NCBI GenBank assembly: GCA_016182875.1
Contig: JACPFQ010000002.1
Coordinates: forward strand, 1 to 52,435
Origin: Candidatus Doudnabacteria bacterium
GTDB lineage: Bacteria; Patescibacteriota; Doudnabacteria; UBA920; O2-02-FULL-48-8
Direction of reading: 5' to 3'
DNA length: 52,435 bases
Shown: one piece after another, positions 11,811 through 46,753 of the stretch
How positions within the stretch are numbered: the stretch's first letter is position 1
Layout of the letters: each line of letters starts with the position of its first letter
Notes under the pieces: model-generated
The model's input: only the letters and a program-made list of their open reading frames with translations
What the model was told of the DNA's origin: nothing
Databases searched by the model: none
Position numbers and translations under genes: made by a program

Positions 11811-11826
11811 AAAAATTCATGGGCGA

Positions 11827-11944
11827 GGACTAGTCGCAAAAACCAGCTTTCGCAGGGCCGCTCATCGGCCCGAGAACGCAGGTCGCAAAATTTGTGGCTT
11901 GATGCCCAAATTTTGACGACCGGTAGTTTTTGCCGATCTAGTCC
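11827..11944 (+). repeat. Structured repeat family A, copy 1
   Basis: Shares AAAAC..GCTTTCGCA..GAGAACGCAGGTCGCAAAAT..ATTTTGACGACCGGTAGTTTT with 18629 and 44370. Confidence 0.9.
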
Positions 11945-11947
11945 GAG

Positions 11948-12730
11948 CTAATAAGTATTAATTAAGCCTCTGTCGAGTGCTTTTCTGAAACTGCTTCTAA
12001 TATATACTATCGACAAGCTAAGATAAAACAAATTCAAAAGCAAGCTGATCCAAAATTTGTTCGGATCAAAATGCCCAGTATGAATAACCTCCCGCAAGCC
12101 TTCAAAAACATAACTCGTCGGAAGAATCGCGGCAACCTTTTGCGCCCACACCGGCAGAAAAGTCACTGGATAGTAAATGGCCGAAAAAGGGGCAAACAGC
12201 GACGTGAAGGTCCAAGCCATAAACTGAATTTTGGTCCCGTACCGGAAAACTATCCCGGCAATGAAAAATCCCATGAACCAGCCAGTCAGCATAAGCGAAA
12301 AGATGAACGGAATAAGATAAAAGCCATAGCTGAACACGGCTATTTTATACAAAAACAATGCGACCAAGCCAGTGAAAACGAAACCCAACAAGCCCTTGAT
12401 AATCCCGTTGACGACCACCGCAATCAGCCATTCGCTAAGCCTAAGCGGAGAAACAAAAATATTCACCAAGTTATGGCTCCAATATTCTTCCAGCAGGTTG
12501 ACCGAGACTTCGCCCTGAGTTCTGAAAATAATATGGTAAAAAATGATTCCCGAAATAATGATATTAATAATCAGCAAGTTGCCGGCCAAGCCCTCGACGT
12601 ACAAACCAGTCAACCCCCAAACAAACAAGTCAATCGTCGGCCAGTAGAAAGTGTCTGCGGCCCGGTCCGGGTTTCGAAACAATAGATAACTATAGCGCAA
12701 GATTATCGCGTAAACTCTCGACCAGCTCAT
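11948..12730 (-). CDS. ABC-2 type transporter permease
   Basis: About six TM segments, YYPVTFLP.W...P; coupled to the ATPase gene. Confidence 0.88.
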   Translation of the reverse strand: MSWSRVYAIILRYSYLLFRNPDRAADTFYWPTIDLFVWGLTGLYVEGLAGNLLIINIIISGIIFYHIIFRTQGEVSVNLLEEYWSHNLVNIFVSPLRLSEWLIAVVVNGIIKGLLGFVFTGLVALFLYKIAVFSYGFYLIPFIFSLMLTGWFMGFFIAGIVFRYGTKIQFMAWTFTSLFAPFSAIYYPVTFLPVWAQKVAAILPTSYVFEGLREVIHTGHFDPNKFWISLLLNLFYLSLSIVYIRSSFRKALDRGLINTY

Positions 12731-17872: not shown

Positions 17873-17954
17873 CTTAGTCTCCCCTATTCTAGGGGAGAAA
17901 TCCTGGCGCTTGCGACAAGAGAACGGGTAGTTTTTGCGGCTATGCCCGATCGAC

Positions 17955-18375: not shown

Positions 18376-18628
18376 GTGGGGCCTCCTTCCGTATGCCAAA
18401 ACAATATCAAAAGATTAGAGCCTGTTCAAGCTCCATTCTTAACTTAAAAATTCGCACAAACTATTTAATCAAAAAGGCTTGTGGGCGGATATTTCTCCTG
18501 TATCCAATCCCGAATCTTCTCTTTGGAAGATTTTGGCATAAAACCCCTTTCTCTCGCAAGAGGTTACATATTTATTATCTTCTATCGAAAGTTCCGTAAA
18601 GTGGTTACTATAAAGACCCGTGAGTGAA

Positions 18629-18744
18629 GGCGCATCCGAAAAACTAGCTTTCGCAGATCGGCTCATCCGATCGAGAACGCAGGTCGCAAAATTTGCGGCT
18701 TCCATGCCCAAATTTTGACGACCGGTAGTTTTTCGGGATGTGCC
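18629..18744 (+). repeat. Structured repeat family A, copy 2
   Basis: Same core as 11827 with compensatory stem changes. Confidence 0.9.
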
Positions 18745-18748
18745 AAAC

Positions 18749-18943
18749 TCACTTTCTCCGTTTCTTAGGAGGTGGTGGAACTTTTGCTCCCTTTTTGCGG
18801 GCTTCGGACAGGCCGATCGCTATGGCCTGCTTTCGGCTTCTGACTTTCTTGCCGCTGCGGCCGCTTGTAAGTTGGCCACGCTTCATCTTGTGCATGGCCC
18901 GCTCCACTGTCTTGCCCGCTTTTTTCCCGTACCTTCTCGCCAT
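18749..18943 (-). CDS. Small basic protein (DUF6496-like)
   Basis: MHKMKRGQLTSGRSGKKVRSRKQAIAIGLSEARKKG. Confidence 0.85.
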   Translation of the reverse strand: MARRYGKKAGKTVERAMHKMKRGQLTSGRSGKKVRSRKQAIAIGLSEARKKGAKVPPPPKKRRK

Positions 18944-19057
18944 AAACTTGCCTTCTGAAAATGTTATACACAGATATAGCATAAATATAGTAAAGCAGCC
19001 GGCCGGCATCAATTAGTCAATATCACAAGTAATAAAAAAGCCCGCAACCGGGTTTTC

Positions 19058-20568: not shown

Positions 20569-20638
20569 CCATTCCCGCGGAAGCGGGAATCTTGCTAAGA
20601 TCCCCGATTACTAGTCCTAATCCTCGCCTCGGGGATGG
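20569..20638. repeat. ATTCCC-N8-GGGAAT palindromic element (dRS3-like, related to family C)
   Basis: CCATTCCCGCGGAAGCGGGAATC...GATCCCCG...CGGGGATGG. Confidence 0.7.
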
Positions 20639-20925: not shown

Positions 20926-22950
20926 ATGCTTACTGAGTCCAGTATTACAGGGTTCGCGATTGTTGCAGGGATTGCCGCAATTGTTTACGGCATTGTCCTT
21001 GCCCGCACGGTTTTGCGGAAACCTTCCGGAGATGAAAAAATGCGCTCCATTGCGGCCGCCATCCAGGAAGGCGCTAATGCTTTTTTGGCCCGCCAATACA
21101 AAACCGTGGCCGCGGTGGCCGTGGTGCTTGCCATTTTGATTTATTATTTCTTTGGCCTCCAGACTGCGGCAGGATTTCTTATCGGCGCTATTTCCTCAGC
21201 GCTCGCCGGATTTGCCGGCATGTATGTCGCGGTAAGAGCCAATATCAGAACTGCCGAAGCCGCAAAAAAGGGTTTGGCCCCGGCTTTTTCTCTGGCATTC
21301 AAGGGCGGCGCGGTCACTGGCCTATTCGTGGTTGGTTTGGGGCTTCTGGCCGTGACTTTGTTCTTCGTCTGGACTGGCCGCGAAATCGCCCCGCTAATCG
21401 GACTCGGATTCGGCGCCAGCTTGATTTCGGTCTTTGCCCGCCTGGGCGGCGGCATCTTCACCAAAGGCGCGGATGTCGGCGCTGATTTGGTCGGCAAAAT
21501 CGAAGCCGGCATTCCGGAAGATGACCCTAGAAACCCGGCCGTGATTGCAGACAACGTCGGCGACAACGTCGGGGATGACGCGGGCATGGCCGCTGATCTT
21601 TTTGAAACTTACGCTGTCACCATCATTGCGGCCATGATATTGGGTAGCATTTTGTTCGAAGGAAATGAAATATTTGTTCTTTATCCTCTTGCTTTAGGCG
21701 GTATTTCCATTTTCGCCTCAATCATCGGCAGTTTCTTTGTCCGCTTGGTGGGCAAAGGAATAATGACTGCTCTATACAAAGGCCTGATAGTTTCAGGCAT
21801 ATTGGCGGCGCTTGGGTTCTACTGGGTTACGCAAAGTTTATTCATCCCGTTCTTCAGCCGTGGCCTGTTCCTCTCAACGCTTGTCGGTTTGGCAGTCACC
21901 GCGTTAATGGTGGTTATTACCGAATATTACACCTCAAAGAAATTTAAACCGGTGCAGTCAATCGCCCAGGCGTCAACAACCGGACACGGCACCAACATCA
22001 TTACCGGCCTGGCCGTCTCCATGCAGTCGACCGCTCTTCCCGTGCTGGCAATTATCGGCGGGGTGCTCCTCTCCTACCATCTCGGGGGAATTTACGGCTC
22101 GGCCATCGCTGTCGTATCCATGCTTTCCATGGCTGGCATCATCGTGGCCATCGATGCCTTTGGTCCGATCACGGACAACGCCGGTGGCATTGCCGAAATG
22201 TCCGGTTTGCCGCAGTCGGTGCGGGAATCAACTGATGCTTTGGATGCCGTAGGTAACACTACCAAAGCAGTAACCAAAGGCTATGCCATTGCCTCAGCCG
22301 GTCTTGCCGCAGTCGTACTCTTTGCGTCCTATACAGAAGAACTTAAAAGACTGGGTCAGAACCTGACCTTTGACCTTTCTGACGTGCAAGTGCTCGCCGG
22401 GCTGGTAATAGGCGGCCTACTCCCCTACTTGTTCAGCTCAATCGCGATGCAGGCCGTGGGCAAAGCCGGGCATGCTGTGGTGGAAGAAGTGCGAAGGCAG
22501 TTCAAAGAAATTCCCGGCATCATGGAAGGAACCGGCAAGCCTGATTACGGCCGCGCCGTGGACATCGTCACCAAAGCCGCAATCAAAGAAATGGTTATCC
22601 CAGCTTTGCTTCCTGTGGTGGTTCCGATTTTGGTGGCCGTGATCCCATTCCTCGGACTCAAGGCTTTGGCATTCCTCGGACTCAAGGCTTTGGGTGGAGT
22701 GCTTGTCGGCTCCATCGTCACCGGATTATTCGTAGCCATTTCCATGACTTCAGGCGGGGCGGCCTGGGACAATGCCAAAAAATTCATCGAAGAAGGCAAC
22801 TATGGCGGCAAGAAATCATTTGCGCACCAAGCGGCAATCACGGGTGATACGGTGGGCGACCCTTATAAAGACACGGCAGGCCCAGCCATCAACCCGATGA
22901 TTAAGATTATAAACATAGTAGCCCTGCTGATCATCGGACTACTGGTCTAA
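20926..22950 (+). CDS. hppA: Membrane-bound proton-translocating pyrophosphatase, probably K+-independent
   Basis: [26 protein letters not shown] (Lys variant), [10 protein letters not shown]; start ATG 20926. Confidence 0.95.
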
Positions 22951-23568: not shown

Positions 23569-24669
23569 TTACTCTACTTTATCAATTATCCCGCCGCCAA
23601 GTAATTCTTCGTCTTGATAAATCACAGCTGCCTGACCCGGCGTAATTGCCCTTTGCGGCTGATCAAATATTATTCGCAGTTTGTCATTGTCATCGTCATT
23701 GTCAATAGTCGCATCAAAATCCGGATGATGATAGCGAATAGACACACCCGCGTTCAAAGGGAACTTAGGAGCTTTGTCAGTCCACGAAACATCCGTGACT
23801 GTGAATTCTTTCTTCCAAAGCTTGGGGTCATTCTGGTCATTGGTCACCAATAGCCGGTTTGAGTCAAAATCCTTACTCGCCACATAATATGGCCCGCTTC
23901 CGCCAATACCGATGCCCTCGCGCTGGCCAATCGTGTAGTATGGCAACCCCTGATGCATTCCCAGAATCTGGCCCGAAGTGGTGACTACTTCCCCCGCTTC
24001 GGCTTTGATTTTTTCCTTGAGAAACTCGCGGACGTTGATTTTGCCGATAAAGCAAATCCCCTGCGAATCTTTTTTGGCATGATTAGGCAGGCCAAACTCT
24101 TTCGCCATTTCTCTCACTTCTGACTTCTTATATTCGCCGATCGGAAACAAGACCTTGGAAAGCTGTTCCTGCTTCAGAGTATACAAAAAGTAACTCTGGT
24201 CTTTCGCCGGATCTGCTCCTTTCAGTAATCGGTATGATATTTTGACTTTTAAATTGTCATTTTGACTTTTGATTTTTGACTTTTGAATTCTAGCGTAGTG
24301 CCCCGTAGCAACAAAATTCGCGCCCAAAGACAAAGCTTTGTCCAAAAAAAACTTGAACTTAATCTCGCTGTTGCACATCACATCCGGGTTTGGCGTCCTA
24401 CCCGCCTTGTATTCCCGCAAAAAATACTCGACAACCTTTTCGTAATATTCTTTTTCGAAGTTCCAGACGTAGAAGGGTATATCCAAAAGCTTGGCCACCT
24501 TGCGGGCGTCCTCGGCATCTTCGGCCCAAGTGCAGCCATAATGCCCAAAGTCCTCGCTCCAGTTCTTCATAAACACGCCAATAACGTCAAAACCTTGCTT
24601 TGCAAGCATTGCCGCGCTGACCGAGGAATCCACTCCTCCGCTCATGCCGACAACAACTTTTCTCTTCAT
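23569..24669 (-). CDS. mnmA: tRNA-specific 2-thiouridylase
   Basis: SGGVDS, TPNPDVMCN, ATGHYA, KDQSYFL, DSQGICF, PGQ. Confidence 0.97.
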   Translation of the reverse strand: MKRKVVVGMSGGVDSSVSAAMLAKQGFDVIGVFMKNWSEDFGHYGCTWAEDAEDARKVAKLLDIPFYVWNFEKEYYEKVVEYFLREYKAGRTPNPDVMCNSEIKFKFFLDKALSLGANFVATGHYARIQKSKIKSQNDNLKVKISYRLLKGADPAKDQSYFLYTLKQEQLSKVLFPIGEYKKSEVREMAKEFGLPNHAKKDSQGICFIGKINVREFLKEKIKAEAGEVVTTSGQILGMHQGLPYYTIGQREGIGIGGSGPYYVASKDFDSNRLLVTNDQNDPKLWKKEFTVTDVSWTDKAPKFPLNAGVSIRYHHPDFDATIDNDDDNDKLRIIFDQPQRAITPGQAAVIYQDEELLGGGIIDKVE

Positions 24670-25310
24670 GCAAAGGGCACCTTTGCAACTGAGTCTATTA
24701 GCATAGAATCGAGTTCTTTTCTTAGTTTAATTGCATCTAAACTCTGGGTCGTAAATTTAGGAAATTCTTGGATCGTTTTAAATTGATTCAATATTATATC
24801 GCTTTCACATGAAATATAACCATCCTTTTTTAAATAAAACATATAACTGCTCCAGGGATAGGTTTCAGGAGTCTTAGAAATGCCTGCGACTGTGGGATTT
24901 TGATGGATGTATGCGGAGAGCCAAAGTAGATAAGAGTCGTCATCAATTAAAACTTGTTTAAATTGATCTTGAAATACGTGACCAACGCGATCATATTTCT
25001 TGTTAAAATATTTTGAATAACTAGAACATAATTTCAAAATAAGCTTACTTGTCGGAATGTTACCATTTTGCTTAATCAAAATATGAAAATGATTTGGCAT
25101 TAAACAATACGCAATTAGTGAGAAGGTATTTGCCGGCAATTTTCTTATTCTTGATGTTGGATTGTCTTCTGGGTATAAATTTTGTCTTAGACGAAGTAAG
25201 AAGAATTTATAATCCTCTGGGTCAATAAAAATATTATTTTTGGCATTGCCCCTATTATAAATATGATAATACGCTCCAGCACCAAATTCTTTGTAATCAC
25301 GAATACCCAT
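24666..25310 (-). mobile_element. REP-associated tyrosine transposase (Y1 HUH, RAYT)
   Basis: YHIYNRGN, YCLMPNHFH, YIHQNP, YPWSS; flanked by REP hairpins; AT-rich. Confidence 0.9.
24669..24687. repeat. REP hairpin at RAYT 3' end
   Basis: TGCAAAGG-gca-CCTTTGCA. Confidence 0.8.
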
Positions 25311-44473: not shown

Positions 44474-45571
44474 TCACATGAAGTTGTGCGCCGGCCAGGT
44501 CAACAGCTCCAGAAACTTCTGCTTGAGCGGCCGCTTGACCCATTCAAACAGTTTGATTTCCTTGGCCATCTGTAAGTCAGACAAAAATTGCTGTTTTAAT
44601 CGAGCGTTGAATTCCAAGCTGCTGCTTATGATGTTCGCTTCATAGCAAAACCAGAAGCTCAAATTGTCGAGGTTGGCGCTGCCGACCGTGCCCCACCTGC
44701 CGTCGACGACGCCGGTTTTGGCATGAAGTAAACTGCCCTGGTATCTGAAAATCCGAATCCCCGCTGCAAGCGCCAATCCGAAGTAAGAAGCGGCTGCCAT
44801 ATCAAGCGACAAATGGTCAGAGGTCACGGGCACGAGCAGTCGCACATCCACTCCTCTTTTGGCAGCCTTTCGCAGTGATGAAAAAAACCGCAAGTCCGGC
44901 ACGAAGTAGGGTGTGGTCAGGTAAATATAATTTTTTGCATTCCTTACGGCTTGAATGAATGCATCACGCAAATATCGCTTGCGGTACTTAAACGACCGGA
45001 AGGTTCGCAAATAAGGCGAGCTTGCCAAAAATTTAAATTCTGAGAAGTTCGAATTAAGGTTCTGAATGACCGTGAACCGCCTCTTCCTGGCGATTTCCAG
45101 CATTCGCGCAAACACCCGTTCCATCTCATGGACTATCGGTCCGGTAACCCGAACATTTGTATCGCGCCAGGTGCTCATCGCACCGCTAATACCTAAGCCT
45201 CCAGTATGCCCAATTTTCCCATCGACTACGAGGATTTTTTTATGGTCGCGGAAAAACCAGGAAGTAAAGTTATGAAGCCGCCAGGGACTTATGGGATTGA
45301 AGAAGAAAACCTGGATCCCGGCTTCAGAGAGGGTCCGTGCGACATCGGAGCTGTAAAAGTCCCTGCTCCCGACCGTATCGAGAATCATCCGCACGCGCAC
45401 CCCGTCTTTGGCCTTTCTTAAGAACAAGTCAACAAATTTTTTCCCGATCTCGTCAAAATGAAAGATATACTGGTCCAAGTCAATCGAGCCTGCGGCATTT
45501 TGGCAGTCCGAAAACATCGCTTCCAGGGCAGACGGCGCGTCCGTATAAAATTGCCAAGTGGTTTCGCTCAT
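44474..45571 (-). CDS. Cardiolipin synthase-like phospholipase D (ClsB type, no N-terminal TMs)
   Basis: Two HKD motifs: HKKILVVD and HAKTGVVD. Confidence 0.92.
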   Translation of the reverse strand: MSETTWQFYTDAPSALEAMFSDCQNAAGSIDLDQYIFHFDEIGKKFVDLFLRKAKDGVRVRMILDTVGSRDFYSSDVARTLSEAGIQVFFFNPISPWRLHNFTSWFFRDHKKILVVDGKIGHTGGLGISGAMSTWRDTNVRVTGPIVHEMERVFARMLEIARKRRFTVIQNLNSNFSEFKFLASSPYLRTFRSFKYRKRYLRDAFIQAVRNAKNYIYLTTPYFVPDLRFFSSLRKAAKRGVDVRLLVPVTSDHLSLDMAAASYFGLALAAGIRIFRYQGSLLHAKTGVVDGRWGTVGSANLDNLSFWFCYEANIISSSLEFNARLKQQFLSDLQMAKEIKLFEWVKRPLKQKFLELLTWPAHNFM

Positions 45572-46086: not shown

Positions 46087-46109
46087 GTGACTTATTTTAG
46101 CATGAAAGC

Positions 46110-46192
46110 GCGACGGGTGGCACGATTTGGGGACCCCAACAGCGCGCAACGAAGTGAGCACTGGCGGGGTAAATCGTGACAGGACCCGTCGC
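46110..46192. repeat. Long imperfect hairpin element
   Basis: GCGACGGGT/ACCCGTCGC, CACGATTT/AAATCGTG and ACCCC/GGGGT nested arms. Confidence 0.75.
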
Positions 46193-46753
46193 CTATGAGC
46201 TAAACTCCCAGTGCCACCACTCCGGAGGATACGCATGCCACCCGGCTGATAACATGACCTTTTTAAGCAGTCTGCGATTGGCCCAGGCCTGCTTCTGCCA
46301 CTGATTCAAATTGATAAACTCTTCGTAATAATCAAGCGCGGATTCAACAGTGAGGTTATCATGGTCAGTCCCCATATAGAGCTCGCGGCCCTTGCCGTCG
46401 ACAATGGTTAAATCCACTGCTCCGCCATTGCGGTGAGTATCCAGACGTTGAACTTTTTTGTAAGGCTTGGCGGCGTAGGTGTAAACCAAGCTATCAATTC
46501 TCTTGGCCGAAAGCCTGGGATACATCAGTTGAAAGCGCTTGCGGAAACTGCTGATTATTTCGAGCTGAGTTTTTCTGCTCCGCTTCATATCCCAAATTTT
46601 GAAATTATATCCTTTGGGCAAAAATTTTCTGGCCGCAACTAACGCCTTCACCGCCGACTCGCGGCCGCAAATCACTGGTGAATGATGCCACCCGAAGAAG
46701 TAATATCTCGGCTCGGTCGCAAAGCCATATTTCTTTACATCAAGAAATTTCAT
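46193..46753 (-). CDS. D-Ala-D-Ala dipeptidase (VanX/DdpX, M15D)
   Basis: THRNGGAVDLT, NRRLL...M, EWWH. Confidence 0.88.
   Translation of the reverse strand: MKFLDVKKYGFATEPRYYFFGWHHSPVICGRESAVKALVAARKFLPKGYNFKIWDMKRSRKTQLEIISSFRKRFQLMYPRLSAKRIDSLVYTYAAKPYKKVQRLDTHRNGGAVDLTIVDGKGRELYMGTDHDNLTVESALDYYEEFINLNQWQKQAWANRRLLKKVMLSAGWHAYPPEWWHWEFSS

Follow-up and report, generated by a model that had tools for sequence, protein, structure and literature searches.

A family-restricted three-way-junction repeat of Patescibacteria and its possible nature as an insertion element

Introduction

Bacteria of the candidate phyla radiation have tightly packed genomes of about 0.8 Mb. We analyzed a stretch of 52,435 nucleotides from a Candidatus Doudnabacteria genome (the window), in which one complex fold recurs three times between genes. 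The locus raises the question of what such a repeat is: a chance resemblance, a gene for an RNA, or a mobile element. A preliminary description of the window had proposed selection on structure and had offered two identities, namely an undescribed non-coding RNA or ribozyme and a single-stranded DNA substrate of a mobilising nuclease.

Results

Three copies in the window adopt the same fold

The three copies were found where the preliminary description had placed them, all on the written (+) strand, and including their end boxes extended them to the coordinates below. Scores are those of R1, the covariance model built from the 15 full copies of the source genome.

11823..11948 (+): copy 1, full element of 126 nt with GCGAGG box, outer stem, three-way junction and CCGAGC box; 139 bits
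11827..11843 (+): copy 1, 5' strand of stem P1, partner at 11926-11944 in the minimum free energy (MFE) and centroid structures
11846..11879 (+): copy 1, arm P2, with lower stem GC.UUC/GAA.GC and the conserved GCA/GA internal loop
11855-11860 with 11866-11871 (+): copy 1, upper stem of arm P2 in the predicted fold
11881..11921 (+): copy 1, arm P3, with GGUCG/CGACC base, bulged A and A/U stem in the predicted fold
17917..17953 (+): decayed remnant that retains a GAGAACG box, fused to the 3' strand of P1, and a degenerate end box
18624..18748 (+): copy 2, full element of 125 nt with variant end boxes GTGAAG and CCAAAC; 126 bits
44366..44469 (+): copy 3, full element of 104 nt, of a subfamily with short P2 and P3; 122 bits

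The element opens with a GCGAGG 5' box, which is followed by a variable complementary outer stem and a conserved inner stem, AAAAYUA/UARUUUU. The inner stem leads into P2 with its conserved GCA/GA internal loop, a 1-base linker, P3 with its conserved bulged A, and a 2-base linker; the 3' end is the CCGAGC box. The frame can thus be written as (A)GCGAGG plus stem at one end and stem partner plus CCGAGC(GA) at the other. Judging from their letters, the end boxes of the written strand could pair as GC-GA-GG/CC-GA-GC with tandem G-A mismatches.

The MFE values of copies 1, 2 and 3 were -59.3, -60.4 and -49.0 kcal/mol, and each copy folded into the three-way junction that had been proposed for it. 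The corresponding z-scores were -7.5, -7.9 and -8.0, with none of 200 shuffles equally stable; the reverse strands were nearly as stable (z of -8.1, -6.8 and -6.7). The paired stem changes of the preliminary description (GGGCCG/CGGCCC versus GATCGG/CCGATC versus GCGC/GCGC, and TTC/GAA versus TGC/GCA) were present and recurred family-wide. The same was true of pair changes in the outer stem, which can be read directly as three different stems in the three copies. Among the family-wide copies, the junction and loop bases of the core were conserved, while the stems covaried.

A fragment had also been suspected at 17905-17940. It exists, and its position shifts to about 17917-17953; it contains a 12-nt exact match to copy 1, lacks the P3 arm and the 5' half, and was not among the R1 matches in the covariance-model scan of the genome.

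The element is multi-copy and confined to one family

The source genome (G000) is an assembly of 788,893 bases in 14 contigs. An exact two-box pattern matched it five times, compared with no match for the reversed control, and BLAST combined with a motif scan revealed 15 full copies of 104-207 nt in these 789 kb. R1 recovered all 15 at 81-144 bits, together with one variant at 30.6 bits. A chance origin of the three-copy pattern is therefore excluded.

When relatives were scanned with R1, as the preliminary description had suggested, matches were found in 19 of the 24 other genomes of the same family (1-16 per genome) and in none of 121 genomes from five sister families, a class-wide sample; a smaller sample gave 0 of 36. 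One genus includes both element-rich genomes (G024 and G022) and an element-free one (G014). A degenerate pattern applied to one genome per species returned 59 loci, 46 of them in Candidatus Doudnabacteria. Of the 13 loci in records not titled Doudnabacteria, three passed R1 (98.7, 90.6 and 52.6 bits) and ten failed. The pattern scan of metagenomes also retrieved 59 loci, and viral contigs gave no match to the pattern.

The novelty of the element held against Rfam 15, no family of which matched it at gathering score or at E up to 10. The whole window gave only a tRNA at gathering score. At E up to 10, copy 1 scored 14.3 and 13.9 bits at best, where the cut-offs are 81 and 48, and seven further copies reached about 18 bits against a cut-off of 78; these loose hits, at 14-18 bits, were chance-level microRNA or snoRNA matches. 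No description of the element was found in the portions of the full-text literature, or of a preprint, that a search by terms returned. The element is a real, family-restricted structured repeat absent from RNA catalogues, and its bearers are one small family of ultra-small groundwater bacteria within Patescibacteria.

Stems covary, and the fold of the written strand is preserved

The covariation alignment comprised 101 R1 matches, which gave 79 distinct rows over 29 model pairs. Canonical pairs occupied 97.6% of the paired cells, compared with 78.6% after shuffling and 29-45% with slid partners, and double changes were present at 25 of the 29 pairs among the 79 distinct copies. The covariation score was 0.516 versus 0.155 and was reached by none of 500 shuffles; the alignment behind it was fitted to R1 and is thus biased toward structure. 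Typical changes included UA:46, GC:27 and CG:3 in P2 (columns 43/99), and CG:46, UA:27 and CG:34, UA:29 at the base of P3. Since an independent MAFFT/RNAalifold analysis of the 15 copies of the source genome agreed, with double changes in 13 of 29 pairs, the structural claim stands despite the model-fitted alignment. The three-way junction is strongly supported, and selection on structure, which the preliminary description had proposed from three copies, is well supported in the larger alignment.

The choice of folding strand was also borne out. On the written strand, G-U and A-C cells in the 29 model pairs stood at 51:16; the nominal binomial value of 2e-5 is overstated because the copies are related. 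Of 75 distinct copies, 61 had the lower MFE on the + strand, and the difference averaged -3.6 kcal/mol. The G-U excess and the lower MFE support the written (+) strand as the strand whose fold is kept, and the mutational asymmetries of coding and leading strands would favour the opposite strand. One genome of the family (G009) carried seven copies with near-identical cores, in which a few outer-stem pairs beside the boxes differed, with compensation.

Copies abut the ends of opposite-strand genes with a fixed polarity

All three window copies had been described as intergenic between minus-strand genes. This was confirmed for copies 1 and 3, whereas for copy 2 only the right neighbour could be assigned, the left-side ORFs matching no protein family. 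Copy 1 lies between a pterin-4a dehydratase gene and an ABC-2 permease gene, and its last base overlaps the stop codon of the permease ORF (11948-12730, minus strand). The 3' end of copy 2 directly abuts the stop codon (18749-18751) of a minus-strand DUF6496 ORF (18749-19012). Copy 3 is 4 nt from the stop codon of a minus-strand PLD-like ORF (44474-45571), and its left neighbour is a minus-strand ORF of 383 aa without a family.

The same arrangement was evident throughout the source genome. In 14 of its 15 copies, the CCGAGC end pointed toward the 3' end of an opposite-strand gene or tRNA: the opposite-strand stop codon was -1 to +4 nt from this end in ten copies and 33 and 61 nt away in two, while one copy was 23 nt from a tRNA-Met and another about 5 nt from a tRNA-Pro, the latter assigned by flank identity to loci with ARAGORN tRNA-Pro calls. 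The fifteenth copy (C9:99542-99665) was located 5 nt upstream of a same-strand tRNA-Cys. The neighbouring genes have unrelated housekeeping functions. They include methionine aminopeptidase and an HtrA-like protease, L3 and the next gene, EF-Tu and S10, PBP and a Mur ligase, CorA and CysRS, ribonucleotide reductase, and S41 peptidase and AlaRS, in addition to the ABC-2 permease, pterin dehydratase and PLD-like genes of the window.

We tallied context automatically for 44 copies with 1.5-kb flanks. An opposite-strand ORF stop was within 10 nt in 16 copies and within 70 nt in seven more; an opposite-strand tRNA end and a same-strand tRNA start were each within 10 nt in three. Four copies had a same-strand ORF within 10 nt; these ORFs (53-128 aa) are doubtful, three overlapping the element and two masking a tRNA-Pro. 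Among 78 distinct copies, 34 had a reverse-complement stop codon starting at +3 or +4 past CCGAGC, and 28 had none within 10 nt of that box. The other end of the element was 11-500 nt from the next gene, and the 5' flank was T-rich and G-poor, corresponding to the complement of the ribosome-binding region of that gene. A -10 box at a fixed distance upstream was considered and rejected; position frequencies revealed only the A/T-rich, G-poor flank. TTGACR directly followed the 3' end in just three of 78 copies. Scans of copies 1 and 3 for sigma-70 promoters, and for terminators on both strands, gave none.

Contig C4 has a uniformly negative GC skew and carries copies in both orientations (-, + and -), each antisense to the local genes. 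Since the orientation flips with gene orientation under a uniform skew, the polarity follows transcription, not replication. The folded strand mostly coincided with the C-rich strand, which is the leading-strand template, and it is also the template strand for transcription of the host genes.

Three other features were noted in the surroundings. One is a repeated G+C-rich hairpin, (A)TCCCCGC-GAAA/TTTC-GCGGGGA(T), which on one strand is followed by a T-run:

C8:6850-6863, C8:2127-2140, C4:83442-83455, window 20574-20587 and C9:292323-292336: sites of the G+C-rich hairpin in the source genome

By its look, this hairpin is a canonical intrinsic terminator, and at some loci it lies just beyond the structured element. 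Another is a conserved stretch of about 45 nt, 9-10 nt past the 3' end of the element in three genera (G018, G012 and G007), with no Rfam match at gathering score. The third is a separate stretch of G012 (locus positions 1426-1503), which lies between tRNA-Thr and a copy of the element and ends in ...GGGCTCCA. Its sequence resembles the 3' half of a tRNA, ARAGORN made no call there, and the stretch may represent an interrupted tRNA or what is left of one.

The same frame holds alternative cores

Two further modules were associated with the frame.

46108..46192 (+): module 2 in the window, a second structured repeat, long hairpin of about 85 nt
C1:~22090-22178, C4:102253-102336 and C9:156466-156601 (-): other sites of module 2 in the source genome, hairpins of about 85-95 nt
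C9:95323-95421 (-) of the source genome and locus positions 2083-2175 of the same-genus genome G001: module 3, a third core in the same frame, three-way junction

Module 2 has conserved internal loops and a covarying middle stem and gave no Rfam match. It stands alone at three sites, lies inside P3 of three copies of the element, and once replaces the core in the GCGAGG...CCGAGC frame. Its window copy follows the same polarity rule, as the 3' end abuts the stop codon of a minus-strand M15 peptidase ORF (46193-46753). The hairpins of module 3 resemble P2 and P3 of the main element in reverse order. At the rplC stop codon, G001 contains module 3 with the same stop-codon junction, whereas the source genome contains the main element there. 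Empty frames that might have been targets before insertion were also looked for, and a single 42-nt hairpin, at C9:293602-293643 (-), came up; it has GCGAGG and CCAAAC end boxes and no core and may, though doubtfully, be a minimal frame or an empty one.

Close relatives differ by gains and losses of copies

Four public runs carry this DNA; all are DNA runs of a single study, possibly the one from which the genome came, and no RNA run was among them. Contigs assembled from DNA runs broke inside copies, as expected for repeats, and provided one informative joint. A contig of run X2 carried an empty allele of copy C1:3968-4073, at a depth of 4.1 versus about 13 for the main form. It joined positions 1426 and 1581 of the reference locus through 27 other letters, of which the last ten equal the reference just before the copy. 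Relative to this allele, the reference contains an extra 116 nt, consisting of 4 nt, the 106-nt element and a 6-nt tail, and a 3-nt ATA repeat leaves the exact boundaries ambiguous. The aminopeptidase (map) ORF ends at a TAG located in the tail and would be two codons longer without the insert; this empty/filled pair thus shows, for one case, that the insert supplies the map stop codon.

Comparisons between genomes pointed the same way. Among the 22 genomes with L3, R1 matched the rplC locus only in the source genome, with two copies, and once in G012 at 56 bits, a match that was not placed; in 20 of the 21 other genomes, R1 thus found nothing at the rplC locus that would correspond to the copies after rplC and between tuf and rpsJ. 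The next ORF started 0-12 nt after the rplC stop codon in most family genomes, and the C-terminus of L3 was identical in all. In most of these 22 loci, an ORF starting MLIIGHRG... directly followed rplC, often overlapping or a few bases from its stop codon, so that the usual S10-operon order is interrupted before rplD. In G001, the site of copy 3 was empty and that of copy 1 held a degenerate frame carrying module 2. Remnants were present at 17917-17953 of the window and beside full copies in other genomes. Copies therefore come and go between close relatives.

The nearest relative was in the same genome for only 31 of 78 copies. Over the compared columns, copy 3 and a copy in G012 were 94% identical; G012 belongs to a different genus and has an L3 protein of 69% identity. 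The tRNA-Pro-linked copies of the source genome and G024, from two genera, were mutually nearest at 89% identity, and their flanks were unalignable. Nearest-neighbour identity was rejected as a clock, the cores being as similar between genera as within genomes. There was no signal of a target-site duplication, with a longest shared flank word of 3.14 in true pairs versus 3.08 in mismatched pairs; the single empty allele would allow a target repeat of 2-3 nt, ATA or TA. Flank complementarity of at least 6 nt beyond the boxes was found in 5 of 43 copies, compared with about 1.6 expected. Neither an autonomous version nor orphan halves were found in the source genome.

No mobilising enzyme tracks the element

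The window contains one gene of a transposase family:

24666..25310 (-): intact gene of the Y1 HUH (RAYT-like) transposase family; PF01797 40.5 bits, NF047646 52.6 bits

The product, a protein of 214 aa (24669-25310), has an NF047646 score below the cut-off of 80. The protein has the motifs H-F-H and Y-I-H-Q-N-P, and a PDB sequence search with it gave nothing meaningful. Within its operon, the gene has a tRNA methyltransferase-family gene on one side and a nucleotidyltransferase gene on the other. It was present in 7 of 25 family genomes, the source genome included: 6 of the 19 other element-bearing genomes compared with 1 of 5 element-free ones. It was absent from 97%-complete genomes with 13-16 element matches, and no R1 match was found near the gene and its homologues in eight loci (26.8 kb). 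By sequence, the RAYT-like protein is a weak candidate mobiliser. As a mobiliser that tracks the element, Y1_Tnp was rejected, its presence pattern not matching that of the element. RVT_1 (10 of 25 family genomes, with a single protein in the source genome, and no matching pattern) and the Xer-like Phage_integrase, PF00589 (23 of 25 genomes, including element-free ones), were rejected as well.

Discussion

We assign a probability of about 0.5 to the reading that the copies are a lineage-restricted, structure-dependent insertion element, REPIN/MITE-like in character, that is multi-copy within one Patescibacteria family. It draws on what the data show, namely many copies confined to one family, covarying stems, a preferred strand, a rule of polarity, and gains and losses between relatives. 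This reading fits better than a single regulatory RNA because the 15 copies are family-restricted and are gained and lost among close relatives. New copies would land at the outer boundary of a gene with a fixed polarity, the CCGAGC end coming to lie beside a stop codon or tRNA end. Along with the element, the inserted DNA would bring a short tail supplying a stop codon on the strand of the host gene, so that insertion in the last codons or in a spacer of 1-5 nt would be tolerated. The fold of the written strand would be recognised by trans-acting copying machinery or a binding protein, in which case only copy lineages that preserve the fold would persist, as in REPIN populations.

Several observations count against an insertion element: no enzyme tracks it, no signal of a target duplication was seen, and no autonomous form was found. 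It behaves like a REPIN or MITE, yet the defining tests of both kinds failed. The core identity of 89-94% between genera would also fit a functional RNA. The data do not favour either of the two identities offered by the preliminary description. The element is undescribed in Rfam, the enzyme survey identified no mobiliser, and placement mostly on the leading-strand template does not fit the usual replication-fork model of single-stranded DNA. Neither this template nor the template of host transcription is normally exposed as single-stranded DNA, and the standard single-stranded DNA transposon model leaves the polarity unexplained. RNA-based readings stay alive mainly on account of this placement of the folded strand, antisense to the host genes and for the most part on the template of the leading strand.

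The copies could be paralogous genes of a small non-coding RNA family, a ribozyme or a protein-binding RNA made from the + strand, with the junction as its functional site. We regard this as rather unlikely, although the preference of the + strand for folding, the core sequence highly conserved between genera, and the purine-rich conserved loops and tandem G-A at the end boxes, which exist on the + strand only, all point to it. Moreover, copy C9:99542-99665 lies between the sole spacer with promoter-like sites and tRNA-Cys and tRNA-Leu, a gene arrangement that implies a transcript of the written (+) sequence; in three other genomes, four copies have a similar position, 4-6 nt upstream of same-strand tRNAs. 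Most copies, however, are inside operons and antisense to both neighbours, as at rplC and its next gene and between tuf and rpsJ; copies 1 and 3 have neither a sigma-70-like promoter nor a terminator; the T-rich 5' flank is the reverse complement of the ribosome-binding region of the next gene; copies are gained and lost between close relatives; and no Rfam ribozyme family matches at E up to 10. The reverse-complement RNA might instead act in cis, as a 3'-UTR or intercistronic structure within the host mRNA or pre-tRNA; it could shield the message upstream, define where processing occurs, or hold a stop codon close to the next start. In operons this is the strand certain to be transcribed, it also folds well, and many copies lie 0-4 nt after a stop codon and 11-32 nt before the next start, or 6-10 nt past opposite-strand tRNA 3' ends. 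Such a role is improbable in our view. Both the MFE differences and the A-C:G-U ratio speak for the opposite strand, and on the mRNA strand the conserved boxes turn into tandem pyrimidine mismatches. The structure is not followed by a U-tract (at some copies, a canonical terminator is located further downstream), the neighbouring genes have no function in common, and five copies with the opposite polarity are upstream of tRNAs.

RNA could also be the route of movement, as for a bacterial SINE-like element whose source copies reside in the 5' leaders of tRNA operons, an idea to which we give little credence at present. Copies in tRNA leaders would be transcribed as the folded (+) RNA, and RNase P cleavage at the tRNA would leave a defined U/A-rich tail of 4-7 nt, which would pair with the A/T-rich stop codon on the sense strand of a gene and be copied into DNA. 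Such a mechanism would explain selection on the + fold, the antisense polarity and the exact abutment to stop codons and tRNA ends; it would also explain why the 5' end is defined, at (A)GCGAGG, and why the insert bears a stop codon. In a sibling of this idea, the conserved junction would be a new catalytic or protein-recruiting RNA module, held in a G-A-clamped frame that can take alternative cores. It is highly improbable that the copies are structure-specific single-strand recombination sites, attC-like, which a tyrosine recombinase reads and at which cores are exchanged within the frame. The basal boxes are indeed conserved and mismatched below a variable, even branched, top; the site abuts a stop codon with its folding strand opposite the gene; and two genomes of one genus carry different cores in the same frame with the same junction. 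The copies are nevertheless dispersed beside core housekeeping genes without cassette arrays, the sole family-wide tyrosine recombinase is a single Xer-like gene found in element-free genomes too, and the end boxes do not fit what we take to be the attC R/L consensus, compared without a model.

This one family keeps up to 16 copies of an elaborate fold inside essential operons, including those of tuf and rpsJ and of rplC and its next gene. The three-way junction is conserved to a degree expected of a ribozyme, the polarity relative to transcription is strict, the insert brings its own stop codon, and a common frame can take alternative cores. Such features are not usually combined, and no recognisable transposase stands alongside them. 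This combination offers a testable entry to non-autonomous mobility in minimal genomes. It also opens a second question, whether recognition at the RNA level or of single-stranded DNA drives the movement, and it adds a well-supported candidate family to the RNA catalogues.

Relation to known elements

REP/REPIN sequences with their RAYT (Y1 HUH) systems are found in enterobacteria and pseudomonads. They are short, multi-copy and intergenic, often just past stop codons, and are maintained as vertically inherited populations. Recognition acts on a folded single strand, so that their stems change in compensating pairs, and they make no target-site duplication. The element is likewise short and multi-copy, has a single-strand fold with compensatory changes, and has a RAYT-like gene in the window. 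In contrast to REP/REPIN, its fold is a three-way junction inside a boxed stem and not a hairpin or hairpin pair, its polarity relative to genes is strict, and the RAYT-like gene is below the family cut-off, unflanked by repeats and absent from the majority of genomes with the element. Bacterial MITEs folding in RNA (Correia/NEMIS of Neisseria, ERIC, BOX, RUP and Rickettsia palindromic elements) have terminal inverted repeats and a target duplication. The element shares with them a length of 100-200 nt, paired ends, co-transcription with neighbours, insertion polymorphism and the lack of an internal transposase. It differs from DDE-type MITEs in that the end boxes GCGAGG/CCGAGC are only partly complementary, there is no duplication signal, and the best conserved part is the interior junction with its covarying stems. 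Unlike single-stranded DNA elements of the IS200/IS605 type (PATE), its orientation follows the local genes, and its folded strand is mostly not on the lagging-strand template.

Recognition of the attC site of integrons is structure-specific; the site has conserved boxes at its base and a variable top, it directly follows an ORF, and its active strand is opposite the coding strand. The element similarly has conserved base boxes and a variable top, adjoins an ORF and folds on the non-coding strand; it differs in having no arrays, no integron integrase and no evident R/L box consensus and in having essential genes as neighbours. It is also unlike an intrinsic terminator, as copies 1 and 3 contain no terminator-like site and T makes up 36-56% at +3 to +8; the tRNA-linked copy at C9:99542-99665 has one weak internal terminator-like site. 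Finally, although it matches no non-coding RNA or ribozyme family of Rfam 15 at gathering score, its degree of covariation and its conserved unpaired bases are typical of these families.
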